The notes under the pieces were generated by a model. The model was not told where the DNA came from and made no database searches. It saw only the letters and a list, made by a program, of their open reading frames with translations. From Candidatus Parcubacteria bacterium (GTDB lineage: Bacteria > Patescibacteriota > Minisyncoccia > JACPXH01): a stretch of 64,000 nt of DNA. The stretch lies in NCBI GenBank assembly GCA_016196625.1, contig JACPXH010000013.1, forward strand, positions 4,516-68,515. The letters run 5' to 3'. Positions 9,936 through 37,772 of the stretch are shown one piece after another. Each line of letters opens with the position of its first letter. Positions within the stretch are counted from its first letter, which is position 1. The translations under genes were made by a program, and so were the position numbers.

Positions 9936-10040
9936 TGATTCCAGAGTAGCAGATTCTGTGGGGCGGAACAACGATTGACAGTTTAAATGGTCTTGTGTTC
10001 TCTTCGAGGGGGCGCGCAGACCGCGCCTTATCCGCCTTCG

Positions 10041-10117
10041 TGAAACTCCACGGGCAGAGCCCGTGGTCCTCTGCGACGGCGGGCAGAAAACCGCGGGCGT
10101 AAGCCCGCGGAGCTTCA
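10041..10117. repeat. Tandem pair of REP-like hairpin elements (TGAAACTCCACGGGCagaGCCCGTGG... and CCGCGGGCgtaaGCCCGCGGAGCTTCA)
   Basis: Stems CCACGGGC/GCCCGTGG and CCGCGGGC/GCCCGCGG with AGCTTCA flanks. Related copies at 36906, 36998, 37746, 53336 and 63723. Confidence 0.6.
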
Positions 10118-10822
10118 TTTGCTTTCTGGCCCCACGAGGCGCTTCAGATCGGCATAGGTTTTCGGCAGGTCAATGCGCCGGCCATTCACGAAAAACGCCG
10201 GCACGCTCTCGACGCCTGACTTCCGTCCGCTCCGGAGATCGTCCATGATTTTTTTGCGCACGCTCGGGTCGTTGAAGTCTTTGCGAAAGCGCTGGATATC
10301 AAGGCCGAGTTCACGGGCGTACCGTTCAAATTGGACTTCGACACGCGTCGCGCTCTTCCAGTCCGATTGGCGCTCATAGAGTATTTGATAGTAATCCCAG
10401 AACCTTTCCTGTTGGCCAGCCGCTTCGGCCGCAACCGCAGCCGAGCGGGCATTGGGGTGAATGCGATCCAATGGGAAGTGCCGGTAGATAAAGCGGAAGC
10501 GCCCGCCAAAATCTTTTTCAAGCTGATTGGTCGCTTGCCAAAAATTGCGGCAGGCCGGGCACTGGAAGTCGCTATACTCGACGACCGTAACGTGCGCCTC
10601 GGTCGGACCGCGGGTCCAGTCACGCTCGGTTGGCGCAAGCGCCAAGAGTGCGGCGGCGGTCTGCCCTGCGTTAGGCTCGATACGGGAGAGGGAAAATCGC
10701 CAGATGGCCCAAGAGATTGCGACCACAATCAAAACAATGCCCAGCCACAGGGCGTATTTCTTGGCGGATTGAGGCCATTTTCCGTTTGGAGGTTGACCGG
10801 GCATCAACCTTGAGGAAACCAA
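10115..10822 (-). CDS. DsbA-like thioredoxin-fold thiol-disulfide oxidoreductase
   Basis: CxxC active site (FQCPACRNFW) in a thioredoxin-like context. N-terminal TM/signal. Confidence 0.7.
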   Translation of the reverse strand: MVSSRLMPGQPPNGKWPQSAKKYALWLGIVLIVVAISWAIWRFSLSRIEPNAGQTAAALLALAPTERDWTRGPTEAHVTVVEYSDFQCPACRNFWQATNQLEKDFGGRFRFIYRHFPLDRIHPNARSAAVAAEAAGQQERFWDYYQILYERQSDWKSATRVEVQFERYARELGLDIQRFRKDFNDPSVRKKIMDDLRSGRKSGVESVPAFFVNGRRIDLPKTYADLKRLVGPESK

Positions 10823-13997: not shown

Positions 13998-15452
13998 TTA
14001 AGATTTACCCAACGCACCACAAGGCCATCGTCTCCTGCTCGCCTCGCTTCGCGGGCGAAGCGGGCCGGTGGATGAATGGTTGGTGCGTAGGCCTTCGGTG
14101 CGGGGTTCCGCCCCGCCACCGAAATACGAGGTGCCGCCGACTCCCGTCGGCGGGGCTCCACGGTGATGCGGATGGCCGCCAAAGCGGGTGCGGCTGACGC
14201 GGTGGATGGGGCGTTGCAGCGGGTGATGGGTGCGGGCCGGCGGGAGCTCGGGGAGCTTTGATACGGGCAGAGACTTTCGGATGAGCCGTTCAATGCTGCG
14301 AACTTCGCGCTGTTCTTCAGGCAGCACGAACGATATGGCGTGCCCCTCGGCCCCGGCCCGGGCCGTGCGGCCGATCCGGTGAACGTAGTCTTCTGAATGC
14401 GCCGGCAAGTCGTAGTTGAGCACGAGTTCAATCCCCTGTACGTCAATGCCGCGCGCCGCAATGTCGGTAGCCACAAGCACCCGGTATTTACCCGACTTAA
14501 ACCCGTCCAGCGCATCGCGCCGCTGCCCGAGCGAGCGGTTGGAGTGAATTTCGGCCGCGCTGTGGCTCATGGCGCGTACAGCCTTGGTCACGCGTTTGGC
14601 GCCGTATTTCGTACGGGTGAATACCAGCGCCGACCCGGTGTGTTCCGTGAGGATAATCTCGAGCAGGCGGTTTTTCGCTTCGCGCTTTACGATGAAGAGC
14701 TCTTGAGTCACGCGTTCAACCGTGGTGCCGGAAGGTGCGATTTCAATGCGAACGGGGAGTTTCATGTTGGCCGTTGCGACCCTCATGATTGCCGGCGAGA
14801 GCGTGGCCGAAAACAACATGGTCTGGCGATCTTTGGGAACGGCCTGGAGGATTTTTTGGACTTGCGGCAGAAACCCCATGTCGAGCATGCGGTCGGCTTC
14901 GTCGAGGACGAGCATATGGACGTTTCCGAGCGTTACCGTTTTCTGATTCAGGTGGTCAATCAACCGGCCGGGGGTGGCAACGATAATGTGGGGGTTCTTC
15001 CCAATCGCTTGGATCTGCGGCTTCATGGAAGCGCCGCCGATTAAAACCGCTGTGCGCAGCCCGAGTGAGCGGCCGACCGCGTGAAGCATCTCATCAACTT
15101 GGAGCGCCAGTTCTCGCGTGGGCACCAGAACAAGGCCTCGCCCTTTGGTTCGGGCGAGGATTTGAATCATGGGGATACCGAAGGCGAGAGTCTTGCCGGT
15201 TCCAGTTTGCGCCACGCCCACAACGTCTTTGCCCTGCATGGCAATCGGAATCGCTTGACGCTGAATCGGGGTCGGGGTCGCATAGCGGAGCTGTGCGAGA
15301 ATCTCAAGAATTCCCGGCGCGATGCCAAGACCGTAGAAACCAGAAGCGGGTGGTTGGACTGGTTGCCTCATGGAATCATCGGGGCCGATTGGTCTGCGAT
15401 TATCGGGAGCATCACGAGAACCTCTGTGTGGCGTTTGTAAAATTCCACGCAC
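13998..15452 (-). CDS. DEAD-box ATP-dependent RNA helicase with a Gly-rich C-terminal tail
   Basis: Q motif and motif I (PTPIQRQAIP...AQTGTGKT), DEAD, SAT and HRIGRTAR motifs. The last roughly 50 codons are encoded by repeat element A (14006-14161). Confidence 0.85.
   Translation of the reverse strand: MRGILQTPHRGSRDAPDNRRPIGPDDSMRQPVQPPASGFYGLGIAPGILEILAQLRYATPTPIQRQAIPIAMQGKDVVGVAQTGTGKTLAFGIPMIQILARTKGRGLVLVPTRELALQVDEMLHAVGRSLGLRTAVLIGGASMKPQIQAIGKNPHIIVATPGRLIDHLNQKTVTLGNVHMLVLDEADRMLDMGFLPQVQKILQAVPKDRQTMLFSATLSPAIMRVATANMKLPVRIEIAPSGTTVERVTQELFIVKREAKNRLLEIILTEHTGSALVFTRTKYGAKRVTKAVRAMSHSAAEIHSNRSLGQRRDALDGFKSGKYRVLVATDIAARGIDVQGIELVLNYDLPAHSEDYVHRIGRTARAGAEGHAISFVLPEEQREVRSIERLIRKSLPVSKLPELPPARTHHPLQRPIHRVSRTRFGGHPHHRGAPPTGVGGTSYFGGGAEPRTEGLRTNHSSTGPLRPRSEASRRRWPCGALGKS
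14006..14161. repeat. Hairpin-rich repeat element, copy A (156 nt), in-frame inside the 3' end of the DEAD-box helicase CDS
   Basis: About 95% identical to 40600-40728 apart from a 27-nt insertion. Contains a 13-bp stem (CTTCGGTGCGGGG ttcc GCCCCGCCACCGAAG) and an 8-bp stem (CCGCCGAC tccc GTCGGCGG). Confidence 0.6.
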
Positions 15453-17017: not shown

Positions 17018-18220
17018 TTACGCTTGGTGTCGAGGTTGATCGCCAGGCAGCAGTAGTTGTACCACCGCAAGCTCAAGGGGCAGCAACGGCAGCGGCGAGC
17101 GGCGCAGCTCGTTTTCTGCCCGGATAAACCGATCAATGACTCTGGTAAGCTGGTTAATCGGGAACGCGTTTGCGTGGGCGTGTACCGCGGCGAACTCCTC
17201 ATCGGTTAGAGATGTAGAGAGTGCAGCTTTGAGTTGGGGGCTTGCGGCGAGCACCATGGCTCGGCGCAGGTGCTGGATAAGGCCCTTGGTAAATTCGTGC
17301 AGGTTGATTCCGGCATCCGAAAGCTCGTGCAGGTTGTGCACGGCGCCGGCAAGGTTATGCGCAGAGAGTAAATCAACGAAGCCTGTGATTTTTTCAATGT
17401 TCACTCGGCCGAGGATGCTCTCTACGTGGGCGAGCGTGATCGGGCTTTCGCTGAACGCAATTACCTGTTCCAGCGTGCGTTCGGCATCGCGGAGCGATCC
17501 CTCGCCCGCGGCGGCAACTGTGCGCAAGGCCGCGGCCTCAATCTTCACTCCCTCGGCTTTGGTGAGCGTAGACAAGCGCGTTTCAATTTGTGGGACCGTA
17601 AATTTTTTAAAGTCGAACCGCTGAACACGCGAGAGAATCGTGGCCGGCATGCGTTCCACCTCAGTGGTGGCTAAGACAAAGATGGCGTGCGCCGGCGGCT
17701 CTTCCAGAGTTTTTAAGAGCGCGTTGAACGCTTCCTTGGTGAGCTGATGTGCTTCGTCAATGATGTAGGCTTTGTATTTTGCTTTGGCCGGCGCGAAGCG
17801 TATGCCTTCACGCAGCTCACGGATTTCGTCAATGCCGCGGTTGGAAGCCGCGTCAATTTCCACGAGGTCGAGGGCGACCCCTTTTGAGAATTCTTGGCAG
17901 GAGAGGCATTTGTTGCAGGGTTCAACGGATTTGTGGGGCCCGCCTTCGCCAAGGCTTCGGCGGATGCTCAATGTGTCCGCGGATTTTCCTGCGGAAATTC
18001 CGGACACATTGGCACAGTTGACGGTCTTGGCGAGGATGCGGGCGAGGGTGGTTTTGCCGGTGCCGCGTGAGCCTGCAAAGAGGTACGCGTGCCCCACGCG
18101 CCCCAATGCGATGGCGTTCGTGAGCGTGCTCACCACGTGCTCTTGCCCGACTACTTCGGCAAAGGTCTGCGGTCGGTATTTGCGGTAGATAACTTGGCGC
18201 ATCATTGCGCAGGATATCAC
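17018..18220 (-). CDS. dnaX: DNA polymerase III subunit gamma/tau
   Basis: AAA+ Walker A GSRGTGKTT, a zinc module CNKCLSCQEF and an SRC/sensor region. Confidence 0.85.
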   Translation of the reverse strand: MISCAMMRQVIYRKYRPQTFAEVVGQEHVVSTLTNAIALGRVGHAYLFAGSRGTGKTTLARILAKTVNCANVSGISAGKSADTLSIRRSLGEGGPHKSVEPCNKCLSCQEFSKGVALDLVEIDAASNRGIDEIRELREGIRFAPAKAKYKAYIIDEAHQLTKEAFNALLKTLEEPPAHAIFVLATTEVERMPATILSRVQRFDFKKFTVPQIETRLSTLTKAEGVKIEAAALRTVAAAGEGSLRDAERTLEQVIAFSESPITLAHVESILGRVNIEKITGFVDLLSAHNLAGAVHNLHELSDAGINLHEFTKGLIQHLRRAMVLAASPQLKAALSTSLTDEEFAAVHAHANAFPINQLTRVIDRFIRAENELRRSPLPLLPLELAVVQLLLPGDQPRHQA

Positions 18221-18282
18221 AGCGGCTCGCTACTCGGCTAGGCTCTGTCCAGTGGAGGCGTGTGCTCGTTTCTCGTGCGTCA

Positions 18283-18314
18283 ACATATTATAATACGATC
18301 GTATTATAATATGT
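18283..18314. promoter_or_regulatory. 32-bp perfect palindrome ACATATTATAATACGATCGTATTATAATATGT overlapping the start codon of the PaaX-like regulator; putative auto-operator
   Basis: Perfect dyad read directly. Half-site ATTATAATACGA. Related sites at 18967, 21361, 37578 and 49594. Confidence 0.5.
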
Positions 18315-18921
18315 GAACGGGAGGGAATCAGAGCGTATGAAGATAAACGGAGCGAAACCGGTGCGCCGGCGGCCGAAGCTACGCGGGCCTTCCCGGGAGT
18401 TCCTGCGGTATCTCGCCGTTGCCGGAGTCGTTGTGGCGATCTCATTGATTGCGCCGCAGCTTCCGGTACAGCTCCTCAAGAACTTCCTGCGCAGACGCCA
18501 CACGTTCGACCCGTCGTCCTTCAGGCAATTTGGTGCGCGTCTGCACAAGCAAGGGCTTGTCAAAATGCAGCAACGAGAAAGCATCCTTACGTTCCGTTTG
18601 ACTGCGGGGGGAGAACGTCTGGCGCAGCAGATCGCGCTCACTAACATCTCGATTGTTCGGCCGCCACGGTGGGATGGTCTTTGGCGGGTCGTCCTCTTTG
18701 ATATCCCGGAGCATGATCGCTTTACGCGGGATTCATTCCGCGCCCTCTTAGAGCGCATCGGATTTGTGAAGATTCAGCGGAGTGTGTTTGCTCATCCCTT
18801 TCCATGCGACAAAGAGATTGAGCTTGCCGTTCGAGTATTCCATCTCGATCGCTCGGTTATTCTGTTTACCGCGACGACTCTGAGCGACGATCGCAGACTC
18901 CGAAGTTTATTTAATCTGTAA
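18313..18921 (+). CDS. PaaX-family-like transcriptional regulator (wHTH + WDGxW domain)
   Basis: PRWDGLWRVVLFDIPEHD is comparable to E. coli PaaX PAWDGKWLLLLSEGLDKS. It is preceded by a wHTH-like segment and followed by GFVKIQRSVF. The start may be the ATG at 18337. Confidence 0.5.
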   Translation: MNGRESERMKINGAKPVRRRPKLRGPSREFLRYLAVAGVVVAISLIAPQLPVQLLKNFLRRRHTFDPSSFRQFGARLHKQGLVKMQQRESILTFRLTAGGERLAQQIALTNISIVRPPRWDGLWRVVLFDIPEHDRFTRDSFRALLERIGFVKIQRSVFAHPFPCDKEIELAVRVFHLDRSVILFTATTLSDDRRLRSLFNL

Positions 18922-19003
18922 GCCGAGCAGATTCTCGATCTGGTTTCTGATTTTCTGTTTGCCAAATTATACTACGATCGTATTATAATGCGTAAACGTT
19001 TGG
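18907..19003. repeat. About 95-bp segment (3' tail of the PaaX-like gene plus downstream near-palindrome 18967-18990), duplicated at 37517-37616
   Basis: About 97% identity to 37517-37616 (copies differ at 2 positions; TTTATTTAATCTGTAAGCCGAGCAGATTCTCGATCTGGTTTCTGATTTTCTGTTTGCCAAATTATACTACGATCGTA[T/G]TATAATGCGTAA[A/G]CGTTT). The site ATTATACTACGATCGTATTATAAT is a 24-bp dyad with one mismatch. Confidence 0.6.
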
Positions 19004-19092: not shown

Positions 19093-19135
19093 CGCAAAAA
19101 AGATTGGGGCGGGCAACCAGCTGGTTGCCCGCCCC
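19093..19135 (-). terminator. Rho-independent terminator
   Basis: GGGGCGGGCAACCAG/CTGGTTGCCCGCCCC perfect stem followed on the minus strand by AATCTTTTTTG. Downstream of the 19156-19452 gene. Confidence 0.6.
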
Positions 19136-19155
19136 ATCGTTGAAGGATCGTTGGG

Positions 19156-20504: not shown

Positions 20505-21050
20505 CTAGGCGGTCTCGGCGCGCTTGATCACCGTGAGCATCTCGTCCAGCAGCTCGCGGCGTTTACGGATTGCGATGAGACTCGTTTCGCGGCGCTTTTC
20601 GGCCCTCGCGAGCGCATTACGGAACGCCGAGACGACCTCATCGAAGAAGAAGAACTCCCAGGTTGGTTGACCACTATCCTCGGTACAGTGGAGATGGAAT
20701 CTGCGTGCAGGGCAGATCCGCAGAACCAAAAAGGTCCCTTTCTCTCCCAAGCACAGCTCCTCGTCCAGGTCGGTCCCGTTGATGGCGTCGTGGACCTGCT
20801 GTCGCAACAGCCGTACCGACCTCTCCTTGGTAAAATGGTTGGGGGGGAGCTGGGGACAACGCTCGCCGTGCGCGGCGTAGATCCACTCGATCGGTACCGC
20901 GATGTGTCCAAGGATCGGTTTCAGACGTTGCACGAGCTCGGAGACGATTTCTCTCGCCTTCGCTGCGCACTCGAGATCCCGGACGGTCGAGTCTTCACCG
21001 TACATGAGATCATGAACGCGGAAACTTGTCGGACTGTTGGGCGTACCCAT
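20505..21050 (-). CDS. Hypothetical protein (181 aa)
   Basis: ATG at 21048-21050. No recognisable domain. Confidence 0.4.
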   Translation of the reverse strand: MGTPNSPTSFRVHDLMYGEDSTVRDLECAAKAREIVSELVQRLKPILGHIAVPIEWIYAAHGERCPQLPPNHFTKERSVRLLRQQVHDAINGTDLDEELCLGEKGTFLVLRICPARRFHLHCTEDSGQPTWEFFFFDEVVSAFRNALARAEKRRETSLIAIRKRRELLDEMLTVIKRAETA

Positions 21051-21360: not shown

Positions 21361-21386
21361 CATTATAATACGATCGTAGTATAATG
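21361..21386. promoter_or_regulatory. 26-bp near-perfect palindrome CATTATAATACGATCGTAGTATAATG (PaaX-like site family), solo copy
   Basis: One mismatch in the dyad. Lies about 95 bp beyond the 3' end of the giant gene. Confidence 0.45.
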
Positions 21387-21481: not shown

Positions 21482-24400
21482 CTAAACAGCCGTCGGCGGC
21501 TCGATCGCTTTACCTCCGACGATGAATTTTTTGAGGAAGGTCTCGACGGTCATCTGCAGCGGTCGCTCGCGGCTGGGCGTGATTTTGAGATAGTCTTGAA
21601 CACGTCGGGCAAGCCCGCCGAAATCACGCATAGCCGGAGAGTCTTTTTCAGCGAGTAGTCTTTCCACGGTTAAGGTTTTGAGTTCGGCTAATTTACTCGA
21701 AGGCAGCTCAACGGATTTGAGCAGTTCGGAGAAAGCTCGCTGCTGGCTTCCAAAATCCGGCGAGAGGGTCAGGCGCTGGCGGGTCGCATCGAGCCGCTGC
21801 ATCTCCTCGAAGATGGCGCTCTCGCGCGCTTGGTTGTCGGCGGCGTTGTGCCACTCGTACTCAAGGCGTTGGCGGACGTCGTGGATGCGCTGGAGCACCT
21901 CTTCCTGTTTGATCAAATCCGCCTGTCTAAAGTCGCGGTGCAGCTCGTCCAGCGCGGAGGAAAATTCATCGGGTGGAGCAACGGCAATCTGCTCCACTTG
22001 TTTGGTTATTTCAGCCGAAGGAGCAATTTTCTCTTGTAGCCACTCGGGCACTTCCTTGCCCAAGCGGCGGTAGATGTCGGCCAAGTCCTTCGCCGTGCCC
22101 GTGGCAAGGCCGCTTTCCGGGATTACTTCAAAGTGCGCCGGCGCGCCTTCCGCAGCTGACACAAACTTGACCACGTCCCCGGGATGAACCAAATCAGGCA
22201 GGTGCTGGACCGATTGTTCCCACGCCGCGGCAAACTCTTTGGCCGAAATTTTGCCCTCCCCTGCACCGACCAGAGATTTCGCCGCATCCCAGACGTTGCC
22301 GCCCTGCTCGATGGTTGCGGCCGGCGCCTGAGCGATTGCTTCGGTCAACGCGCTAGGTTCCGTTGCACCGTGCCATTCGCGCATTCCGACGGCCCTGGCC
22401 GCTTCGCGGAGAGCTTCGTTTTGCTGGTCTGATAGCTTAACTGCCTGTTCGATTTCTGCTTCGCTTAAGCCGGCCGGAACAGTTGGCGGAGTTTCCTGAA
22501 ATTGTTTGATCGCTTCTTCGCCCATCCCCTCCGGCTTTCCGTATGCGGCTTCATCATGGCTCGGCGGAGACGTGGCTTCGATGTGTCGAACCTCATCGCT
22601 CAACGAGCCAGAGGCGTGGGGGCCGCGCGTCAAATCTGCTCGGTCAAAACGCATCGCCGTGAACCGTTCGCTCGTATCGTTGAAGTTTTTCCACCAGTTT
22701 TGCGCCGCAGCCTCGGCGGCGCCCGACACGCTTTTCTCGGACAATTCGTCTGTTATAGCGCCAATCCCTTTTCCCTCAAACTCTGTCAGCAGTTCCTCTA
22801 CAACCTCCACGGGCGGCCTCTCGAGCAGGGCGTTGACCGCCGCACCGCCAATGCCGTAGGCAATGGCGAGTTTGCTTGCGGCTTGGAAGAATTCGCCCGT
22901 TCGCTCCAGGCCCGTTCGGCGCCCCCGCGCTTCTTTGGATCGCAGCATCCCGCCGGTCAGACCGTGGAGCGTTTCGGCCGTGCTCGTCAAAAACAGGTCC
23001 TTTGCTTGTGCGATTCTCTTGCCCCGGAATGACGCGGAATGTTCGCCGTCCCACGCGGCTTTTTCGTACGCGCGGCCCGCCTTTGCCCATCGCTCCGCAG
23101 CCGCGGTGGCCGCGTACGCAGCGCCGCGCAGCACCGGCATCCCGCCGAGCACAAGGGCGGTATTCAGCGCTTCGCGAGCCACCTGATAGCCGGAGATTTT
23201 GGTGTTGAGGTAGAGACGCGAAAGCTTGTCGGCGCGGCTCATATCTTCTTGGCGTAACTCTTCGTCGGTCCGTTTGCGTTCGGCCATGATGCTGGCAAGG
23301 CGTTTTCGAAACTCCTTTTTTTCGTGCGCCGGGAGGTACTGCGCCTGCTCAAGCGCCTCTTTGAAACGTTTGACCGTTGGCGCCACCGCCTCGGTGTAGG
23401 CAAGGTTGTCAGGTCGGTAGAGCGCCGTTCGCTCTTCGGCTGCCCGGCGCTCGGCGCGGAGCGTATGAGCCATTTCAGCAAGTGCTGCCTGCACTTCTCG
23501 TCGCTCTCGGCGGACTTTTCCGCGTTGGCGCCCCCACGCAAAAACGTCATAGAAGAATTTCACGCCCAGGAGGGAGCCTGCGGTTTTGGCCGCGGCAGCG
23601 CCAACGTGCTTGAGCACGCCGGCCGCCACCCGACCGGCTTTGGGCCGCTCGCGGCGTCTTTCGGCAGTAGCGTCAGACGGAGGAGCAGACTCGCGCATGC
23701 TGCGGGCAAGGGCATGCACGCGGGCGAGCGCATCCGCGATCTCGGGATCTCCGGGTTGGCGCGCTTCGGCCTTGTCTGCGCCCTGTGCAGTTTCAGCCAA
23801 AACCCGTGCGCGCTCTTCTCCCTCGCTGGCCGCCTCGGTTACGGCCGCTGCGTAGTCGTAGGCTGTCTCGCCATCAGCGGCGCGACTCGGCGAGGGGGCT
23901 TGTCGTTCGACTGGTTCGGTTTGGGTGGGTTCCGGTCGTTCAGGCGTAGCTGGTGGTATCGTTTGTTGCAGCAGCGCCCAGTGACTCTCTTCCGTAGTTT
24001 GTTGTCGTTGCGTTCGGGTCGGGCCGCCGTCGTTTGGAAATTCGTCTGGATGCTGTTCCAGCAGCCGTGAGGCTTGCGTGCGCGCCTCCGCTTCAGTGAA
24101 TACCGAGAGGTCGGCATTGGCCGCAATGACCCGGCGGATTTCATCTGCTTGAGCCGACTGTTCTTCGCGCTGGAGCCGTTCGGTTCGGGTCGGGCCGCTG
24201 GTCGGGTACAGATCCGGTCGGGTGAGGAGACGCTGGATCGCTTCTGCCCGGCTCATATCAACTCCGGCCGCGCGCGCTTCTTCCACCATGCGGTGGATTT
24301 CATCCTCATCAGGCGAAAGCGCCGGCTTTTCCGGCTCTGGCCGCGCTGCGGCGTCGGCCATCGCCGCTTCGTCGGCTGCGACCGTTGTCGTCATCTCACT

Positions 24401-25903
24401 CGCAGCGCGTCTGGCAGCCTTATCCGCAGCTTCTTCTGCGTCCGGCTTTGCCGGTCTGGTTGGCGCGGTTGTCAGCTCTTCGGCCGGGGGTTGGGCGGTA
24501 CCGGCACGGTGTCGCGCCCGCGCGCGGCGAAGCGAGTCTTCGTCCCAAGCCAGATCGCCTTCATCATAAACACGTCCACCCCTTGCCTTTCTTTGATTGC
24601 GCTGTTTTTGTGGTCTGGTTTCGTCTGCGGCCGGTGCTGGCGTTTCCGCTTCGATCGTCGTGAGAACATCCGGCTCTTTTTCTGCTAAGTCGTACGCTTC
24701 CCATTGACTGATGCCGTGCTGTTGAGCTAGACGGTTTACCAGTTCCCAGTGGTGGCGGGTCTGCTCATAGTTGCGGACGTTTGACGGGGCAGGCGGCGCT
24801 TCGCCTGGCTCAGGAGTCGGAGGTGGCGCCGGTTCGGGTTTTGGCTCTGGCGCGGGGGGCGTTTCCGGACCGGCGATTTGCTTGACGGCGTTCAATGAGT
24901 AGTAATGGATAATGTGCTCGCGCGCGGCACGCTCATCTCCGTTTGCGGTGCGCCCGGCCAAGGACCGTATTTCATTTTGGAGCTGCGCCGATTGCTCCGG
25001 CGTGAGCCCTTGGAGGAATGTTTCAATTTCGGTCTGCAGTTCGGGCGGATTTTCCGGATACTCGCGTTTTCCCCGGCGTTGTTCGGCAGGCGCAGGAGCG
25101 GGCGGGCTGACTACGCGCTCGCGCGACCAGTCCGGATAGCGGCGCAAAATCAAAAGACTCGCCTCACGGATCATTTGGGCGCGGTTTTCCGGCGTTACCG
25201 GTATTTCGTGGTTACTCAAAAAGATCTCTGCTTCTTTTTCAAGGAGTGCCTGTGTGTCTGTCGGCAGATTCGCAAGATCGCTCAAGGCATTCTCGAGCGC
25301 AGCTTTTTCCTCCGGAGTTTTGGGCGGGGCCGTCAGTTCAGCAAAAGTTTTCTCCCAGCGCTTTGGTCGTCGCGGCGCGGGAGTGGGCACTGGCTTTTCA
25401 CCGGAAGTCTCCGTGGCGGCAGGGGTTGGTTCGGCAGGCGGAGCTTCTCGGCCAGCCGCGTCGCTTGTCTCTTCGATTTCGGCAGCGTCAGCAGCCGGGG
25501 TACCTTCAGTTGTCTCAATCACGGCCGGGGATGGTAATGGCTCCACGGGTAGTCCGCGGGGCACGCTCCCCGCCCGCCGCGCGCGCCGGGTGTCTGGCTC
25601 TTCGTCAGGCTGACCCCCTATCTCTGGTGAGTCCTTTGCTCTTGGCGGGGGCGGAACGGTTTCGGCACGCTGGAGGAATTTAAGCCGTCTGTCGAGCGCC
25701 ATGAGCTTTATTTTCGCCTCGGGCCTTTCAAGAACGCCGAGCGCCTCGACTCTCCGCATTGCCTCCTCGTACGCTTCCTGCTCTTCGGGCAGGAAAGTTT
25801 CCCCGTTGTTGTTGCGCTTGGCTTCTTCGTAGGCAAACTTAATGAAATCGGCCAACGCCTGTTCATGACTTTCAGTCCACGGGTTTGGGATTTCTCTCGA
25901 CAT
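21482..25903 (-). CDS. Giant Ala/Glu/Pro/Arg-rich low-complexity protein (1473 aa from the ATG at 25901-25903), function unknown
   Basis: Single long ORF. Pro-rich linkers (PAPEPKPEPAPPPTPEPGEAPPAP) and predicted coiled-coil/helical acidic stretches. No signal peptide at MSREIPNPW. The listed start at 26044 would overlap the upstream gene. Confidence 0.65.
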   Translation of the reverse strand: MSREIPNPWTESHEQALADFIKFAYEEAKRNNNGETFLPEEQEAYEEAMRRVEALGVLERPEAKIKLMALDRRLKFLQRAETVPPPPRAKDSPEIGGQPDEEPDTRRARRAGSVPRGLPVEPLPSPAVIETTEGTPAADAAEIEETSDAAGREAPPAEPTPAATETSGEKPVPTPAPRRPKRWEKTFAELTAPPKTPEEKAALENALSDLANLPTDTQALLEKEAEIFLSNHEIPVTPENRAQMIREASLLILRRYPDWSRERVVSPPAPAPAEQRRGKREYPENPPELQTEIETFLQGLTPEQSAQLQNEIRSLAGRTANGDERAAREHIIHYYSLNAVKQIAGPETPPAPEPKPEPAPPPTPEPGEAPPAPSNVRNYEQTRHHWELVNRLAQQHGISQWEAYDLAEKEPDVLTTIEAETPAPAADETRPQKQRNQRKARGGRVYDEGDLAWDEDSLRRARARHRAGTAQPPAEELTTAPTRPAKPDAEEAADKAARRAASEMTTTVAADEAAMADAAARPEPEKPALSPDEDEIHRMVEEARAAGVDMSRAEAIQRLLTRPDLYPTSGPTRTERLQREEQSAQADEIRRVIAANADLSVFTEAEARTQASRLLEQHPDEFPNDGGPTRTQRQQTTEESHWALLQQTIPPATPERPEPTQTEPVERQAPSPSRAADGETAYDYAAAVTEAASEGEERARVLAETAQGADKAEARQPGDPEIADALARVHALARSMRESAPPSDATAERRRERPKAGRVAAGVLKHVGAAAAKTAGSLLGVKFFYDVFAWGRQRGKVRRERREVQAALAEMAHTLRAERRAAEERTALYRPDNLAYTEAVAPTVKRFKEALEQAQYLPAHEKKEFRKRLASIMAERKRTDEELRQEDMSRADKLSRLYLNTKISGYQVAREALNTALVLGGMPVLRGAAYAATAAAERWAKAGRAYEKAAWDGEHSASFRGKRIAQAKDLFLTSTAETLHGLTGGMLRSKEARGRRTGLERTGEFFQAASKLAIAYGIGGAAVNALLERPPVEVVEELLTEFEGKGIGAITDELSEKSVSGAAEAAAQNWWKNFNDTSERFTAMRFDRADLTRGPHASGSLSDEVRHIEATSPPSHDEAAYGKPEGMGEEAIKQFQETPPTVPAGLSEAEIEQAVKLSDQQNEALREAARAVGMREWHGATEPSALTEAIAQAPAATIEQGGNVWDAAKSLVGAGEGKISAKEFAAAWEQSVQHLPDLVHPGDVVKFVSAAEGAPAHFEVIPESGLATGTAKDLADIYRRLGKEVPEWLQEKIAPSAEITKQVEQIAVAPPDEFSSALDELHRDFRQADLIKQEEVLQRIHDVRQRLEYEWHNAADNQARESAIFEEMQRLDATRQRLTLSPDFGSQQRAFSELLKSVELPSSKLAELKTLTVERLLAEKDSPAMRDFGGLARRVQDYLKITPSRERPLQMTVETFLKKFIVGGKAIEPPTAV

Positions 25904-28593: not shown

Positions 28594-31020
28594 TTACCGC
28601 CCGGTCCCCTGCTCTGTGGGTGGAGCTGTGGTGAGCGCGGGCATTTGGGAAAGTCGGGTCCGAACTTCTTGTTCGACCGCCGCGCGGTCCCGGCCGTATA
28701 TTGAGCTCGACCACTGCCGAACTGCGTGTGCCGCCGCCGGATCCCCTTTGCGCGGCAGGTTGATCACAAAGTTAAAGGGCGAAGTGGTTTTGCCTTGAGA
28801 CATGAGCCGCGCGTAGGCGTTGAAGTTATCAAGGTTGATGAGATCAGATGCGGCAAAGGCCGGCGCAAACTGGGGTTCGATGGATTCGGCGTCTTCCACT
28901 CCCACCCGAAACGAAACCAAGGATCCCACGTTGCCGAAGACCGCGTTTTTGATTTCGTCCGTGAGTTGTTTGATGAATTGATGCGCGAGCGTGAGATTGA
29001 GCCGGTACTTGCGTGCTTCGGACAGGATTGTCGCAATGGACGGGGTCGCGAAGCTCTGGAATTCGTCCAAGTAGAGGTAAAAATCGGACCGCGCCTCCTC
29101 GGCTGCGTCGGTTCGGCTCAAAGCCGCCAAAAGCAGTTTGCCCACGAGAATCAGGCCAAGGAGGGAGCTGTTGAGTTCGCCCAGACGCCCTTTGGTGAGG
29201 TTAACGAGGAGAATCTTGCGTTCGTCCATCACTTGGCGAAAATTAAATGAGCTTTGCTCTTGGGCGATGATGGGGCGCATGATGTCGTTGGCAATGAACA
29301 GGTTCATCTTTGAAGTGATGTAGGGCACCATGTTCGCGAGCGCCGCTTCCCCGCCGGCTTTCTCCGCCTCCAGCTCCCAGAAATTCTTGATTACCATGTT
29401 CGTCGTGCGTGAGAGTTTCAACTTGCGAAACTCTTTATCCGCGAGCACCCGCGGGATTTCCAGGAGCGTATTGCCGGAGGCAGGATCTTCCATGACCAGC
29501 AGCACGGCGTTGCGCATGTATTGTTCAAACATGGGCCCGCCGGTAACTTTCAGATCGTAGAGCTTGTCAAAAATGGCGATGAGTTCATTCGCGATGAAGG
29601 TTTTCTGCTCGGGGTGCGCCGGGTCATATTCAAGCATGTTAAGCCCGAGGGGCCGTTCGATGTCGCCCGGGTTGAAATAGATTACTTCTTCCCGGCGGCT
29701 CGCGGGCACGAGTCCGAGGAGGTCGTCGGCCAAATCTCCGTGCGGGTCTATAAGCGCAAGGCCCTCTCCGGCCTCAATGTCTTGACGCGCGAGTTCTTTG
29801 ATGAGCGACGATTTGCCGGTTCCAGTTTGGCCTATAATATAGAGGTGTCTCCGGCGGTCTTCGCGCGCGATACGGATTACGGTTTCTCTGCCCCGAAAGA
29901 CGTTGCGCCCCAACATCAGACCTTCAAGGGGAAGGTTGAGCGGCGGCTCGGCCTGACGGGCTTTGAGCGCGTGCAGTTTGGGTGCTTCGAGCGAGGGGGT
30001 CGCAAAGTGATACATGCTACTCAACTCATCGGCACTCAAGATAAGCGCATCGCGTGAACGAAAGAGACGCCATGAAAACGCAAAGAGAAGCGACTCCAAC
30101 CGGCCGCCCTTGCGCCGCTTAAATGAGAGCGAGTTGGTCGGGGGAGCGCTCAAGGGGGCAAAGGCGGTTTCCATCTGTTCGAGCAGCGCTTTCGCCCGAG
30201 TCTCTTCTGCCGCCGAGGCCACCACCCGAACATTGGCTGCAAAGACGGGCGTGCGGGCCTTGCGCTCGATGGCCTCCACCGCTTCGGGGTCAACGGGTTC
30301 GTTCTTGCTTTCGCCGGGGCCTCGGGTCGAGTTTGCTTTGAGCTTTTGGGCTTGGGCCACGCTTTCGGCGCCCCAGCGTTTGGGAGCGGGTTGGAGCAGA
30401 ATTTGGATGGCCGCACCCTCCCCTTCTTTGGCAATTTTGCTTAAGGCCGTGGCAATCGCGCTTAAGGGATCCACTTCAAGCTCACGGAAGGTGCGCAGCG
30501 ACAGGCGGCTGTTTTTGACCTCAAGGATTGAGGCTTCGTGTCTGCCGTGGGGATTGAACAGGTTATAGTCCGGTACCGCCTCGATTACGGCTTCCGGGAA
30601 AAAGCCGTGGATGTGTTTTTCGAACGCTTCAGCCAGCCGCCTCGGGAAGGCCGCGAAAAACTGAATTTCCTCGCCCACATGGGGGACGGCCAGTTCAAAG
30701 GCAACCGTGGGCATCCCCCGGAGGATCGCCCGCCACCACTTCTCTTTTAGAAACGTCAGGCTCGCGTAGAACTGACTCATGACGGCGAGCCCCTCGCGCA
30801 TTCGTTCCACTGCCGATCGATCCGACTCCAGGGGACGGTTCGGAAGCGCAATCGCGAAGAGGGCGAGGTTCAGGGCGCGCGCGGTCTCCCCTCGGCGTCG
30901 GAGCGTAACTAAACCCCAAGCCGCCGCAGTGCCGCCCACCGTAAGGACGGCGAGGGTTATGAGGATGAGCCAGAGGAGGAAAGAGAGATCGAGGGGCACG
31001 GTCAAAAGTTCAAATGCCAA
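28594..31020 (-). CDS. Membrane-anchored VirB4/TraG/HerA-like P-loop NTPase (AAA_10/DUF87-type)
   Basis: Two N-terminal TM helices. Walker A GQTGTGKSS followed by LIDPHGDL, Walker B FYLYLDEFQ, then LTLAHQ. TTG start at 31018-31020 lies inside an AT-rich heptad leader. Confidence 0.55.
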   Translation of the reverse strand: MAFELLTVPLDLSFLLWLILITLAVLTVGGTAAAWGLVTLRRRGETARALNLALFAIALPNRPLESDRSAVERMREGLAVMSQFYASLTFLKEKWWRAILRGMPTVAFELAVPHVGEEIQFFAAFPRRLAEAFEKHIHGFFPEAVIEAVPDYNLFNPHGRHEASILEVKNSRLSLRTFRELEVDPLSAIATALSKIAKEGEGAAIQILLQPAPKRWGAESVAQAQKLKANSTRGPGESKNEPVDPEAVEAIERKARTPVFAANVRVVASAAEETRAKALLEQMETAFAPLSAPPTNSLSFKRRKGGRLESLLFAFSWRLFRSRDALILSADELSSMYHFATPSLEAPKLHALKARQAEPPLNLPLEGLMLGRNVFRGRETVIRIAREDRRRHLYIIGQTGTGKSSLIKELARQDIEAGEGLALIDPHGDLADDLLGLVPASRREEVIYFNPGDIERPLGLNMLEYDPAHPEQKTFIANELIAIFDKLYDLKVTGGPMFEQYMRNAVLLVMEDPASGNTLLEIPRVLADKEFRKLKLSRTTNMVIKNFWELEAEKAGGEAALANMVPYITSKMNLFIANDIMRPIIAQEQSSFNFRQVMDERKILLVNLTKGRLGELNSSLLGLILVGKLLLAALSRTDAAEEARSDFYLYLDEFQSFATPSIATILSEARKYRLNLTLAHQFIKQLTDEIKNAVFGNVGSLVSFRVGVEDAESIEPQFAPAFAASDLINLDNFNAYARLMSQGKTTSPFNFVINLPRKGDPAAAHAVRQWSSSIYGRDRAAVEQEVRTRLSQMPALTTAPPTEQGTGR

Positions 31021-31088
31021 AATCCAAATGCCAAATCAAACTTAAAGTTCAAAATCCAAAATCGCTTCGGCATTTGGGCTTTGGATTT
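31021..31088. promoter_or_regulatory. AT-rich heptad-repeat leader (units TTTGRMW) abutting the ATPase start
   Basis: Shares an about 55-nt block (AAATGCCGAAGCGATTTTGGATTTTGAACTTTAAGTTTGATTTG) with 33745-33821. Related repeats at 31488-31551, 49621-49675 and 60941-61124. Confidence 0.5.
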
Positions 31089-31487: not shown

Positions 31488-31551
31488 ATCTCGAAATGAC
31501 AAATGCCAAAATCCAAATGTCAAATGCAAAATCAAACAGCGCTACAGTATA

Positions 31552-31999: not shown

Positions 32000-33694
32000 A
32001 TGGATAAGCGCCAACGAACTTGGATTTTCCTTGGCATCATTCTTGTAGTTGCCATCTTTTTTCGCTTCTGGCAGTTTACCGAATTTCCTCCCGGGTTGTA
32101 TCCGGACGAGGCGGTCAATGGCGTAAATGGTCTCCAAGCGGTTGAGACCGGCAACTATCAAGTTTTCTACCCGGACAACAACGGCCGCGAGGGGCTGTGG
32201 ATGAACGTGCAGGGATTAGTCTCAAAGGCGCTCGGCCCTTCGCCCTGGGCTCTGCGGGTGCCCAGCATGGTGATAGGCGTGCTCACGGTTCTCGGCCTTT
32301 TCTTATTAGTGCGCGAGCTAGTCGGCGACGAGGTGGCTTTGGTTTCGGCAGCGCTGCTGGCGACTTCCTTTTGGCACACGGTGTTTTCCCGCATGGCCTT
32401 CCGGGCCATTCTATTGCCGTTCGTGCTTACCTATCTTTTCTACTTTTTGGTTCGGGGATTGAAACGCGGGCGCGGATCAGATTTTGTCGGAGCCGGTTTT
32501 TTCTTCGGGCTGGGTTTTCACACCTATATTTCTTACCGGATCGTGCCGCTGCTGCTGGTTGCGCTGTTCGGCGTACTCATTTGGTTAAAGCGGCGCAAGG
32601 TTTGGCAGCCAATATTCTGCGCGCCGTGTGCGGTTAGTCTTATGCTGATTGTGGGGCTTGTGGTGGCAACTCCCATGCTTCTTTATTTGATTCAGCACCC
32701 GGAAGATTGGAGCGGTCGGACCGGCGGCATTTCTGTCTGGAGCGCGCAAAGTCCTCTCAAGGCCGTTCTCATCTCCACGGCCGCAACATTAGGGCAGTTT
32801 AACGTGCTCGGGGATCGCAACTGGCGGCATAACTTCCCCGGCCGGCCGGAGCTGTTTTGGCCCGCCGGGATTATGATGCTGGTAGGGCTTGCGATAACGT
32901 TTCGGACAGCGTTCCGAATATTCCGCGCAAAGCCAGCCGCGCCACCCTCGGAGGAAACCGTTCGGCCATGCCACTCTAATATACTAGTATATGATAGTGG
33001 AAACGGCTGGCTCGTCATTTTCGGGGCGTGGCTCATGCTCGGATGGTTCTTTGCCTTGATGGTGCCGGCGATTCTCACGCGCGAAGGCCTGCCCCATGCG
33101 CTGCGCACCATCGGCACTATCCCGCCCGCGTACGCGTTTGCCGGGGTTGGCACGTGGCTCACGTGGAAGGCGTTGCGGCGCAAGGTTCTCGGTGGGCTCG
33201 AAGGATTTTTGGAACGCGATCCGAATCTGGAGTTTCTGCGATCCAGATTGAACCGTATTCGGCGGTGGTTCGGGGTGCTGCTCGCGACTTTTCTTCTGTG
33301 GGTGGCGGGCAGCGAAGGGGTTACGTACTTTGTGCGTTGGGCGCCCCACCCGCGCGTGGCCGACGCTTTTGCGGCTCACCAGACCGAGCTCGCCAACTAC
33401 ATCAACGCCGCGGAGCCCGACATTTCGATCTACGTGGTGGTTAACGCCCCCAGTCTCAACGTCAACGGCATCTCGCTCAACGCCCAACCCCTCGTGTATC
33501 TGAATCACGGCCGGCCCAACTTGTTTTTCGTAACTCCAGAGACCATCGGTTCGATCCCCCGCGATCTGCATCGGGCCGAGATTATCCTGCTCGATTCGGA
33601 TCGGCAGTTTCTGGCCCAACTCCAGCGTGAGCGTTATCCCCAAGGAAAGACCAAGGCAGTCTCGGGGACGATCGTGCCGTTGGTGATTCCGTAA
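32000..33694 (+). CDS. Glycosyltransferase family 39 (ArnT/PMT-like) polytopic membrane protein
   Basis: N-terminal loop motif GLYPDEAVNGVNG (DE motif) after the first TM, with many TM helices. ATG at 32000. Confidence 0.7.
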   Translation: MDKRQRTWIFLGIILVVAIFFRFWQFTEFPPGLYPDEAVNGVNGLQAVETGNYQVFYPDNNGREGLWMNVQGLVSKALGPSPWALRVPSMVIGVLTVLGLFLLVRELVGDEVALVSAALLATSFWHTVFSRMAFRAILLPFVLTYLFYFLVRGLKRGRGSDFVGAGFFFGLGFHTYISYRIVPLLLVALFGVLIWLKRRKVWQPIFCAPCAVSLMLIVGLVVATPMLLYLIQHPEDWSGRTGGISVWSAQSPLKAVLISTAATLGQFNVLGDRNWRHNFPGRPELFWPAGIMMLVGLAITFRTAFRIFRAKPAAPPSEETVRPCHSNILVYDSGNGWLVIFGAWLMLGWFFALMVPAILTREGLPHALRTIGTIPPAYAFAGVGTWLTWKALRRKVLGGLEGFLERDPNLEFLRSRLNRIRRWFGVLLATFLLWVAGSEGVTYFVRWAPHPRVADAFAAHQTELANYINAAEPDISIYVVVNAPSLNVNGISLNAQPLVYLNHGRPNLFFVTPETIGSIPRDLHRAEIILLDSDRQFLAQLQRERYPQGKTKAVSGTIVPLVIP

Positions 33695-37022: not shown

Positions 37023-37099
37023 TAAAAAGTTAAGAGCCGCCGCGAAGCGATGACTCTGAAGGACGACTCTCTTGGGCGGTCGTCCGATTGCCCGAAGTC

Positions 37100-37745: not shown

Positions 37746-37772
37746 CCACGGGCGTAAGCCCGTGGAGCTTCA
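37746..37772. repeat. REP-like hairpin CCACGGGCgtaaGCCCGTGGAGCTTCA
   Basis: Family member. Confidence 0.5.

Follow-up and report, generated by a model that had tools for sequence, protein, structure and literature searches.

A gene for a 194-aa short PaaX-like regulator is bracketed, in the window (the whole 64-kb stretch of DNA analysed here), by two copies of a palindrome, and most of the Patescibacteria homologues compared are flanked on both sides by a lineage-specific version of the same element. We favor, with a probability of roughly 60% drawn from sequence comparison, a model in which the protein is a dimeric autorepressor whose two flanking operators probably cooperate, for example by looping. 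As far as comparative sequence analysis can tell, self-bracketing is no accident but a regulatory design that has been conserved. The features of the locus, taken from a gene map made with a codon-score gene predictor and from inspection of the intergenic DNA, are as follows.

17018-18205, minus strand: dnaX, clamp-loader tau/gamma subunit, the divergent neighbor, with the S1 control region in common
18280-18310, plus strand: putative regulator promoter, -35 TCAACA (18280-18285), 16-nt spacer, -10 TATTATAAT (18302-18310)
18283-18314, no strand: S1, the upstream site, ACATATTATAATACGATCGTATTATAATATGT, a perfect 32-bp palindrome with a 24-bp core at 18287-18310
18287-18317, minus strand: putative divergent promoter, -35 TTCACA (18317-18312), 16-nt spacer, -10 TATTAT/TATAAT (18295-18287)
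18320-18325, plus strand: ribosome-binding site GGAGGG, 11 nt ahead of the ATG
18337-18921, plus strand: regulator gene, 194-aa short PaaX-like protein
18928-18960, plus strand: hairpin CAGAT-TCTCG-ATCTG with a T-rich tail, seen by eye and not called by the terminator scan
18966-18989, no strand: S2, the downstream site, ATTATACTACGATCGTATTATAAT, one mismatch to the 24-bp core

Both palindromes described in the initial annotation are thus present, the perfect one at 18283 and the 24-bp near-palindrome after the gene. The annotation had also placed the first of them across the start codon, and this part did not hold. Only a mechanical GTG at 18313 is overlapped, and the real start, ATG 18337, is 22 nt away; it agrees with the 194-aa NCBI protein (P0001; 100% identity and coverage) and with the N-termini of orthologues. 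Given this start, the palindrome is a promoter site lying 22 nt upstream of the coding region. The S1 dyad falls between 18298 and 18299, in the intergenic region separating dnaX from the regulator gene. S2 begins 45 nt past the regulator stop codon (18919-18921), and the two dyads are 679 bp apart. The intervening hairpin might conceivably terminate the regulator transcript.

Each arm of S1 contains ATTATAAT, which can be read as a -10 box in both directions. A consensus scan gave 9 of 12 matches for the regulator promoter and 10 of 12 for the divergent one. We placed the regulator -10 inside the palindrome because only 22 nt, ribosome-binding site included, remain before the ATG and because the sequence upstream is GC-rich; no other -10-like box was seen between 18205 and 18283. 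S1 therefore appears to hold the sole plausible -10 boxes for the regulator gene and for divergent dnaX, and the divergent promoter would drive dnaX. As judged from consensus matches, the candidate regulator promoter has its -10 inside S1 and its -35 on the S1 flank, so that the site overlaps the core promoter of the gene itself. Adjacency to dnaX is kept at orthologous loci, whose proteins are 63–65% identical.

The encoded protein has a winged helix at about residues 17-102, a Cas2-like domain at about residues 110-191, and a WDGLW motif. It was compared with the PaaX references PDB 8A39, TIGR02277, and Pfam PF07848, PF20803, and PF08223. PaaX_M (PF20803, Cas2-like) matched residues 110-182 with E = 2e-19 in Pfam. 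The AlphaFold model (pLDDT 86) predicted a winged helix-turn-helix (wHTH), and the best structural match in Foldseek was E. coli PaaX (8A39, 185 aligned columns). The N-domain PaaX model PF07848 had no Pfam match; the predicted wHTH was aligned to PaaX 8A39 by Foldseek, and in a profile search residues 22-107 aligned weakly to MarR-type wHTH domains. PaaX_C (PF08223) likewise had no Pfam match, and the chain ends at residue 194, directly past the Cas2-like domain. The score against the PaaX equivalog TIGR02277 was 32 bits, compared with a cut-off of 264.55. These data uphold the earlier description of a PaaX-like protein with a wHTH and a WDGxW motif, and they settle the question left to fold prediction, PaaX-like or Cas2-like, for a truncated PaaX-like architecture.

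PaaX of E. coli and Pseudomonas is a phenylacetyl-CoA-responsive repressor with palindromic operators that overlap promoters. The regulator resembles it in having a predicted N-terminal winged helix followed by a Cas2-like middle domain. It differs in lacking PaaX_C and in scoring far below the equivalog cut-off, and no paa genes were found near it, either in the window or at 70+ family loci. The Cas2-like domain of the regulator retains Cas2 motifs (FDIPE) that E. coli PaaX is not known to have. The candidate operators differ as well, being ~36-bp tripartite palindromes in two copies that bracket the gene, whereas no bracket was seen at the canonical three-domain PaaX-like locus L089 (n = 1). 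A literature search on PaaX/Cas2, PaaX-like proteins, and CPR palindromic motifs returned nothing about the short PaaX-like family.

This family is large: species-representative genomes contain at least 590 of its loci, and it forms 1330 clusters at 50% identity (E ≤ 1e-30); it is almost confined to Patescibacteria (CPR), and its members are ~180–200 aa throughout. The flanks of 62 of 78 Patescibacteria family loci (~80%) have a common ~36-bp palindrome at a score of at least 15, which only 9 of 1114 control comparisons reached. Strict palindrome pairs were present at 46 of the 78. Both sets, the 46 strictly paired loci and the 62 with a common flank element, come entirely from metagenome-assembled genomes. 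Orthologues adjoining dnaX have diverged palindromes on both sides of the gene, and at a separate locus a homologue of 39% identity is flanked, again on both sides, by a different palindrome. The proposal that bracketing of a gene by its own sites is a general architecture is strongly supported by these counts and by the arms, which are lineage-specific yet equal on both sides and track the winged helix. The downstream palindrome is centered +26 to +58 nt from the regulator stop (interquartile range) but is only loosely spaced from the next gene. Placement of the upstream site with respect to the promoter is not uniform: at locus L004 it appears to precede the likely -35. A second upstream copy is present at three loci, an arrangement also seen in multi-operator repressors. 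Tandem upstream copies aside, two distant extra copies were found in ~300 kb of other family loci, and none at L001 and L004 (20 kb each). The neighbors at 70+ family loci are diverse housekeeping genes (e.g. dnaX, mreB, recA, tRNA synthetases); no recurrent functional partner emerged among them, and Cas1 was not among the recurrent neighbor families.

We compared the two copies within loci and between loci to examine the anatomy of the site. The geometry is one of ~13-bp arms around an 8-bp center. Arm identity is 83–93% within a locus versus only ~30% between loci. The central 8 bp are the most conserved and most symmetric part of the palindrome, with a core, RCGATCGY, common to the whole family; 45 of 46 loci have C at -3 and G at +3. 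Constraint is weak at positions 5-7 of either half, which are also the least complementary. This anatomy appears to fit contacts by a protein dimer and not a hairpin stem. Site sequence also co-varies with the protein across homologues (flank comparison, Mantel). Arm distance correlated with winged-helix distance (Mantel r = 0.23, p < 0.0005), a correlation that is modest and confounded by phylogeny. The partial correlation of the arms with the wHTH was 0.15 when the Cas2-like domain was controlled for, compared with 0.04 for the Cas2-like domain when the wHTH was controlled for. Mutual information between residues and bases was diffuse, being spread over all domains and confounded by phylogeny.

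Together, these features suggest how the system may work. The regulator would be a sequence-specific DNA-binding protein whose N-terminal winged helix reads DNA, and its Cas2-like domain most likely serves as the dimerization module, as in PaaX. A dimer would sit on the ~36-bp tripartite palindrome, the central RCGATCGY being recognized by a family-conserved part of the protein and the arms, which span positions 8-16 to either side of the dyad, being read by the variable winged helices. Since S1 carries the -10 boxes of both promoters, its occupancy is predicted to repress the regulator and dnaX alike, which would amount to negative autoregulation. The sign of regulation may differ between members, given that the upstream site is variably placed with respect to the promoter, as at L004. 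The same protein would bind the second site past the stop codon, where it most likely cooperates with the upstream site, possibly through a protein-bridged loop of ~0.65–0.85 kb around the gene; alternatively, the second site could act as a roadblock. Inter-site distances across loci showed no helical phasing, a comparison that is uninformative at such loop lengths. Of the two alternatives offered by the initial annotation, autoregulatory unit or mobile regulator cassette, the former fits best, considering the -10 in the upstream site, the stable location beside dnaX, and the near-absence of the family from viral and phage collections.

Beyond S1 and S2, the window holds three more copies of the palindrome, and the 24-mer occurs five times at up to three mismatches versus 0 times in 100 shuffles. 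One of the additional copies lies in a duplicated segment.

18906-19001, plus strand: 96-bp module, source copy, made up of the last 16 nt of the regulator gene, the hairpin and T-rich tail, S2, and 12 nt more
21362-21385, minus strand: S3, one mismatch, 312 bp upstream of gene 20505-21050 (minus)
37518-37613, plus strand: 96-bp module, second copy (direct repeat family D5), 98% identical to 18906-19001 and including S4
37578-37601: S4, within the second copy of the 96-bp module
49593-49616, plus strand: S5, three mismatches, 156 bp upstream of mreB (48379-49437, minus)

S3 lies past the terminator of a gene for a 1473-aa protein, S5 lies just beyond the terminator of gene 49733-50263 (minus), and four of the window's sites are close to gene 3' ends. 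S2, S3, S4, and S5 have oriented flanks in common, from which S3 is seen to be inverted relative to the other three. The second 96-bp copy abuts a NUDIX ORF (37100-37522, minus; Pfam match E = 5.9e-16) that is without a canonical start codon, the copy having replaced the 5' end of this gene with a sequence that includes 16 nt of the regulator 3' end. Because of the common oriented flanks, and because S4 is part of a 96-bp copy of the S2 module, at least some of the sites arose via module duplication and not by operator selection in place. The mobile cassette alternative gained no support in its stated form; the duplicate of the downstream module shows only that the site can duplicate. In the autorepressor model, S3-S5 would add a few loci to the set of sites, near mreBCD, the NUDIX remnant, and a hypothetical gene. 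A metagenome scan with the window's palindrome had a single return, an unrelated AT-rich contig (L085). At the gathering threshold, Rfam found tRNA-Gln alone in the window and no known RNA family at any site. The stretches past S2, S4, and S5 and their counterparts at L001 and L003 have ~12 nt in common (GTAARCGTTTGG) and no common ORF, which led us to reject the idea that a conserved sRNA or small ORF follows the downstream copy.

The downstream palindrome could instead be the promoter-operator of the next unit, be it a neighboring gene or else a short or antisense RNA; in that case the regulator would control its neighbor, and the second site would play no part in expression of the regulator itself. 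S2 is indeed overlapped by a promoter-like element directed away from the gene (TTGCCA-16-TATTAT, 18959-18986, 10 of 12 matches) that S3 and S4 also have, the S3 module stands in the normal terminator-then-promoter order before gene 20505-21050, and about half of family loci have a co-directional downstream gene. However, the matched downstream palindrome is as frequent with convergent neighbors (20 loci) as with co-directional ones (23 loci), its position is tied to the regulator stop and not to the next gene, and the neighbors in the window and at L001, L003, and L004 are convergent. The 60–190 nt of would-be forward transcript are also unconserved, with neither a conserved ORF nor an Rfam family, and many palindromes, L004's for example, have no -10-like box. 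We therefore consider this explanation unlikely. It is very improbable that the palindromes are RNA or DNA hairpins, whether intrinsic terminators or REP-like mRNA-stabilizing stems, and not sites to which the regulator binds. The arms could form long perfect stems, a scan picked out two copies (the downstream one at L001 and the upstream one at L004) as resembling terminators, and the nearness of four window sites to gene 3' ends would suit such a role. Against this stand the conservation and symmetry of the central 8 bp, the would-be loop, and the poor complementarity of positions 5-7 within the stem, as well as the likeness of both copies at a locus in sequence and not merely in structure. 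The stems are only 38% GC, and G:T pairs are rare. No enrichment of T-tracts follows the downstream copies (4.0 T per 10 nt versus 3.5), and the intrinsic-terminator version was rejected on this count.

Other explanations concern what the protein does at its sites. A domesticated or selfish palindrome cassette, similar to RAYT/REP or lox/dif systems, would cut, recombine, or copy the sites, making the flanking pair the ends of the element and the dispersed copies its progeny. This possibility, which we judge rather doubtful, draws on the single-copy gene with its co-diverging cognate palindromes and extra dispersed copies, on the resemblance of ~13-bp arms and an 8-bp center to recombinase core sites, on retention of the Cas2 motifs FDIPE and Q-x-S-V-F, and on the oriented flanks of S2-S5 with the 96-bp copy in the NUDIX 5' end. 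Yet searches of the protein with Pfam and NCBIfam revealed no HUH/Y1, tyrosine- or serine-recombinase, or transposase domain (only PaaX_M/Cas2-type and sub-threshold matches), and a His-hydrophobic-His motif is absent among the family's invariant columns. Copy number is low, the dnaX-adjacent location is stable across the orthologues, the upstream site coincides with promoter elements, and the ends of the duplicated segment, 60 bp from the palindrome on one side and 12 bp on the other, argue against site-specific recombination at the core. A phage or mobile origin of the family was rejected, as a search of 2.9 million viral contigs gave one match and a search of phage genomes gave none. A bolder proposal, which we hold to be speculative and quite unlikely, is that the ~36-bp lox-like palindromes with their invariant C-N4-G center are action sites of a Cas2-derived protein that nicks, recombines, or tethers them to the membrane through its conserved acidic FDIPE pocket or N-terminal hydrophobic helix, the promoter-operator module spreading by self-copying, as with the NUDIX copy. 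If true, CPR would possess a site-specific DNA-handling element of a new class, and with it a living intermediate linking nucleases of the Cas2/VapD type to transcription factors. The conserved hydrophobic N-terminal segment of the family resembles a transmembrane helix, a feature unexplained by a soluble repressor. Were it a real membrane helix, the protein could anchor its locus, along with a few other sites, to the membrane (cf. Noc), and any effect on transcription would be secondary. Of 46 members, 31 have a best 19-residue Kyte-Doolittle window of 1.6 or more (median 1.96); this window is always near the N-terminus, and AlphaFold confidence is lower in this segment (pLDDT ~72–76). Such tethering is nonetheless improbable: in the AlphaFold model the segment is packed into the winged helix, where it forms helix 1 and strand 1, the MarR-type wHTH alignment covers residues 22-107, net positive charge on both sides does not favor a topology with a cytoplasmic DNA-binding domain, and a bracketed TrpR-like protein in the window has no such segment. 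Finally, NCBI names the regulator Cas2 because it shares a ferredoxin-like fold, the beta-1 hydrophobic-Asp motif, and the Q-x-S-V-F motif with Cas2 (TIGR01573/PF09827); the beta-1 Asp of real Cas2 is retained within FDIPE. A genuine CRISPR-associated Cas2 would agree with the TIGR01573 score (27 bits versus a cut-off of 24.5) and with the resemblance to Cas2 structures in Foldseek. Cas2 is a stand-alone single-domain protein of about 90–110 aa, however, and at 194 aa with a fused N-terminal winged helix the regulator is twice that size. Its Pfam CRISPR_Cas2 score is under threshold (21.1 versus 23.8) and its PaaX_M match is strong, no CRISPR-like array or repeat family was found within the window, the 70+ loci have housekeeping neighbors and no recurrent Cas1, and palindromes flank its own gene. 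This last reading can practically be dismissed, and the database name Cas2 is wrong.

The autorepressor model has parallels in known systems. Lambda CI (OL/OR flanking the immunity region), coliphage 186 CI (flanking FL/FR), and LacI (O1/O2/O3) use the same operator repeated hundreds of bp apart with one copy at the promoter, and in lambda the repressor gene lies between operator sites. Here, in contrast, the unit is a single ~0.6-kb chromosomal gene, the layout is family-wide and recurs in a second, unrelated family, and oligomerization and looping are proposals. RAYT/REP systems, built on REP-associated tyrosine transposases, combine a single-copy, vertically inherited gene with cognate co-diverging flanking REP palindromes and dispersed intergenic copies. 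The regulator gene is also flanked by cognate palindromes with few dispersed copies, but it encodes no HUH/Y1 domain, its copies are few per genome segment (three extra in 64 kb versus tens to hundreds), and its upstream site sits on the core promoter. Autoregulated repressors of the MarR/PadR type are similar in being dimeric wHTH proteins (a state predicted here) whose promoters are covered by a palindromic operator and whose genes often diverge from a target gene; residues 22-107 of the regulator show weak similarity to MarR profiles. They differ in that a MarR helical bundle takes the place of the putative Cas2-like dimerization module; the operator described here is far longer, with a conserved center, and a second conserved operator lies past the stop.

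CPR bacteria cannot be grown alone, and their regulation is almost unknown; the bracket provides predicted regulator-operator pairs for dozens of CPR species at once, read from the genome. In the 46 strict pairs (62 with the common flank element), nature has matched proteins to palindromes whose core stays constant while the arms vary; a recognition code might be worked out from this set, and orthogonal repressor parts drawn from it. In the window the sites touch dnaX and the mreBCD region, which hints at control of replication and cell-shape genes. A large family that is partly mis-named Cas2 can also inflate "orphan cas2" counts where CRISPR is said to be rare.

The initial annotation had pointed to the same architecture at a TrpR-like gene, and this was corroborated.

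1986-2017: palindrome on one side of the TrpR-like ORF
2022-2480: TrpR-like ORF
2501-2532: palindrome on the other side

The TrpR-like regulator is unrelated to the short PaaX-like family, and two of its distant homologues are likewise bracketed. Occurrence of the two-site bracket in two unrelated regulator families suggests a design rule shared by regulator genes of tiny CPR genomes, which might provide tight autoregulation, looping, or insulation.

The regulator gene (18337-18921, plus strand), which encodes a short PaaX-like protein, is flanked on both sides by copies of one palindrome, and three more copies lie elsewhere in the window:

17018-18205, minus strand: dnaX, separated from the regulator gene by S1
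18283-18314: S1, a perfect 32-bp palindrome (ACATATTATAATACGATCGTATTATAATATGT) whose 24-bp core starts at 18287
18966-18989: S2, a copy of the 24-bp core of S1 with one mismatch
starting at 21362: S3, an inverted copy of the 24-mer
starting at 37578: S4, a copy of the 24-mer
starting at 49593: S5, a copy of the 24-mer

With up to three mismatches allowed, five occurrences of the 24-mer lie in the window and none in 100 shuffles. The initial annotation had described a palindrome lying on the start codon and a related site after the stop. Both sites are present, but the position on the start codon does not hold: the only coding overlap is with the first mechanical GTG, at 18313. The start is instead the ATG at 18337, which follows GGAGGG at 18320-18325, lies 22 nt beyond the end of the S1 palindrome and gives a 194-aa product identical to the NCBI protein P0001 (100% identity and coverage); the N-termini of orthologues agree. 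S2 begins 45 nt past the stop codon (18919-18921). The start codon excepted, the observation was essentially right.

The further claim, that bracketing by cognate sites is a general architecture, is supported by flank sharing across the family and by a second family, with binding itself predicted from sequence. Orthologues at 63-65% identity are still divergent from dnaX, and their palindromes differ from that of the window, yet the same sequence flanks each gene on both sides. At the family locus L001, TTTCCTAATTATATCACGTACGTGATATAATTAGGAAA stands on either side of the gene; at L003, TTTCCTAATATTACTACGAACGTGGTAATATTAGGAAA lies upstream and a variant with five mismatches downstream. At L004, a different locus near yidC and dnaA, a homologue with 39% identity has CGGTACATTTAGCCGCGATCGCGGCTAAATGTACCG on both sides; directly upstream of its upstream palindrome, the hexamer AAATAG is repeated in tandem about seven times (L004 9866-9910). 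For 78 non-redundant loci, we searched the 360 bp on either side of the gene for an ungapped element shared between the two flanks. Such an element scoring at least 15 was found in 62 of the 78, versus 9 of 1114 comparisons with control regions of the same loci, and a stricter search for matched even palindromes recovered 46 of the 78.

Dyad positions in the 46 loci with matched palindromes
Upstream dyad relative to the start codon: median about -56
Downstream dyad relative to the stop codon: median +37, interquartile range +26 to +58
Dyad-to-dyad distance: median 656 bp, range 609-847 bp

Three loci (L007 at ~2818, L010 at ~2854 and L038 at ~2968) have, besides the downstream copy, a tandem pair of upstream copies separated by ~80-115 bp, giving three operators per gene, with a second upstream copy as in multi-operator repressors. 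The one canonical three-domain PaaX-like locus inspected, from a GC-rich organism, has no bracket (n=1).

The window also contains a second bracketed regulator gene:

1986-2017: TrpR-type palindrome (TTCTAATGTATTAATACATTAGAA-type, 28-32 bp)
2022-2480: TrpR-like gene (Pfam Trp_repressor, E = 3.9e-8)
2501-2532: TrpR-type palindrome on the other flank
32971-32998: variant of the TrpR-type palindrome
40764-40793: third TrpR-type copy, 220 bp upstream of serS

In other CPR lineages, two distant homologues, at the loci L086 (36% identity) and L087 (45% over 57% of the query), have their own, different palindromes (2972-2997 and 3455-3480 in L086; 2965-2992 and 3455-3486 in L087), and in each the downstream copy starts no more than 10 nt from the stop. 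This second family is unrelated, and the layout thus extends beyond a single fold.

Alignment of the 46 palindrome pairs at their dyads revealed three constrained blocks spaced by about one helical turn, the pattern expected of a protein dimer on one face of the duplex. The common core is RCGATCGY: 45 of 46 loci have C at -3 and G at +3, about 80% have A/T at ±1, and minority variants include CCATGG, CTATAG and CGGCCG. Conservation and symmetry are lowest at positions 5-7 of each half (66-76% complementary, versus 92-97% at positions 9-12). At positions 8-16 of each half, the two copies of a locus agree at 83-93%, versus only about 30% between loci. A hairpin would not be expected to give this pattern: its loop, here the part with the strongest conservation, should vary freely, and the stem should run without a break. 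Arm distance correlates with winged-helix distance (Mantel r = 0.23, p < 0.0005), and also when the Cas2-like domain is controlled for (partial correlation 0.15, p < 0.0005); the converse partial correlation, between arm and Cas2-like domain with the winged helix controlled for, is 0.04. Arm motifs such as CCACTTA, CCTTGTA and CTGCTAWAA are common to clades with similar recognition helices. Residue-by-base mutual information is diffuse and confounded by phylogeny, and adds nothing. We infer that the arms would be read by the variable winged helices and the common core by a conserved part of the protein.

The AlphaFold model of this protein (pLDDT 86) comprises an N-terminal winged helix-turn-helix (helices 17-29, 44-49 and 59-71; wing 75-88) followed by a ferredoxin-like domain (116-191). 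Its top match among solved structures is E. coli PaaX (PDB 8A39, 185 columns), structurally the closest known system; Cas2 structures rank next, matching the C-terminal half only. Pfam assigns residues 110-182 to PaaX_M, the "central Cas2-like domain" of PaaX (E = 2e-19), and CRISPR_Cas2 falls slightly under threshold. The protein lacks the PaaX_C domain, no paa genes lie nearby and the window holds no CRISPR-like array. Domains, fold and context therefore define a truncated PaaX-like architecture that is neither a PaaX orthologue nor Cas2. The former is ruled out by the absent PaaX_C, the lack of paa genes and an NCBIfam PaaX equivalog score far under the cut-off (32 versus 264.55 bits), the latter by the protein's double size and the absence of cas1 and an array. 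NCBI names the protein "CRISPR-associated endonuclease Cas2" because the Cas2 model (TIGR01573) cut-off is narrowly passed (27 versus 24.5 bits), an error that probably recurs systematically in part of a family of more than 1300 clusters. Searching 1.84 billion cluster representatives with a profile returned 1330 proteins at E ≤ 1e-30, the best 150 of them almost all 180-200 aa long. In species-representative genomes, the motif WR[VI]VxFDIP identified at least 590 related loci. Almost all come from Patescibacteria, like the source contig (a Candidatus Parcubacteria MAG), and two or three paralogues often share a genome. Viral contigs gave one family match and phage genomes none. We found no paper on this short PaaX-like family or on the bracket.

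The family shares a very hydrophobic N-terminal stretch, which in the window protein is LAVAGVVVAISLIAPQLPV (residues ~21-44; DNA ~18397-18468). The top 19-residue Kyte-Doolittle window reaches at least 1.6 in 31 of 46 members (median 1.96), and this transmembrane-like stretch could conceivably be a membrane anchor of a predicted DNA-binding protein, which would alter the mechanism. AlphaFold incorporates it, at lower confidence, into the winged helix (helix 1 and strand 1), and residues 22-107 align to MarR-type domains in a profile search.

Each arm of S1 contains ATTATAAT, which can be read as a -10 box in either direction. A consensus scan found TCAACA-16-TATTAT (plus) and TTCACA-16-TATTAT (minus), both within or flanking the palindrome, and four promoter-like matches in the S1 region versus 0.8 expected. 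The 22 nt between S1 and the ATG contain the ribosome-binding site, and the dnaX side is rich in GC and offers no further -10-like box. Occupancy of S1 should therefore silence the regulator's own promoter, and probably that of dnaX too. At L004 the palindrome apparently lies upstream of the likely -35, so members may vary in site position and perhaps in the sign of regulation.

Downstream of the regulator, the next gene is convergent in the window, L001, L003 and L004; across the family, 37 loci have a co-directional next gene and 34 a convergent one. Matched downstream palindromes occur as often with either orientation (23 and 20 loci) and keep their spacing from the regulator stop codon rather than from the next gene, which argues against the neighbour as their cause. 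An intrinsic terminator is likewise unlikely: the 10 nt after the downstream copies contain 4.0 T versus 3.5 after upstream copies, and the stems are just 38% GC. The stretch from S2 to the convergent gene's terminator (19105-19136) is unconserved among orthologues, with no conserved ORF and no Rfam match. We favor a reading in which the same protein would bind both sites cooperatively, bridging a loop of 0.65-0.85 kb. If coding sequence cannot accommodate a 36-bp palindrome, a shorter loop would hardly be possible, and the closeness of the site to the stop codon would be accounted for. Lambda CI, 186 CI and LacI would be functional analogues, the closest mode being that of an autoregulated winged-helix repressor with separated cooperating operators. 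Alternatively, the downstream site may serve as a roadblock or insulator.

The remaining window copies bear on whether the bracket is instead a mobile cassette. S2, S4, S5 and inverted S3 share oriented flanks (a T-rich tail, TGCCA, the palindrome, GCGTAARCGTT) and a promoter-like TTGCCA-16-TAKTAT directed away from the tail. S5 lies 156 bp upstream of mreB (then mreC), with a better promoter match facing the other way. S3 lies past the terminator of a 1473-aa gene and is directed at the gene 20505-21050; the ~1470-aa protein at 21482-25903 (minus strand) is rich in Ala, Glu and Pro and has no Pfam match. S4 falls within 37518-37613, a 96-bp near-duplicate (98% identity) of 18906-19001 that carries along the final 16 nt of the regulator gene. 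Duplication of this segment thus accounts for at least one site, and it is the main point in favor of mobility. However, the segment ends 60 bp and 12 bp from the palindrome, not at it; besides the tandem upstream operators at three loci, only two distant copies occur in about 300 kb of family loci, and none in L001 or L004 (20 kb each). The likeness to RAYT/REP systems is in layout only. The copy adjoins a NUDIX ORF (37100-37525, minus strand; Pfam E = 5.9e-16) whose frame is closed by a TAA at 37525-37523, just inside the copy's boundary, with no ATG, GTG or TTG ahead of the Nudix box. The copied module probably replaced the 5' end of this gene, decapitating it, or the gene uses a non-canonical start. 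Separately, ~130 bp of the 3' end of a DEAD-box helicase gene (13998-15371, minus strand), at 14005-14161, is repeated at 40599-40728 with 94-97% identity; the repeat is intergenic, beside the third TrpR-type palindrome, a second case of a gene 3' end copied beside a palindrome site.

Two other repeat classes occur in the window:

3527-3552, 10040-10131, 36998-37023, 37625-37650, 37740-37786, 53328-53375, 63722-63769: dispersed GC-rich hairpins at gene ends
31002-31075, 31491-31539, 33689-33809, 60946-61119: low-complexity AT-rich repeats, intergenic

The hairpins consist of CCGCGGGC-GTAA-GCCCGCGG flanked by GAAAACCG and GGAGCTTCA; on the minus strand a T-run follows the stem, which probably marks them as terminators or REP-like elements. 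The AT-rich repeats have units such as CAAAT, TCAAA and GTTCAAA within sequence that is otherwise 57% GC.
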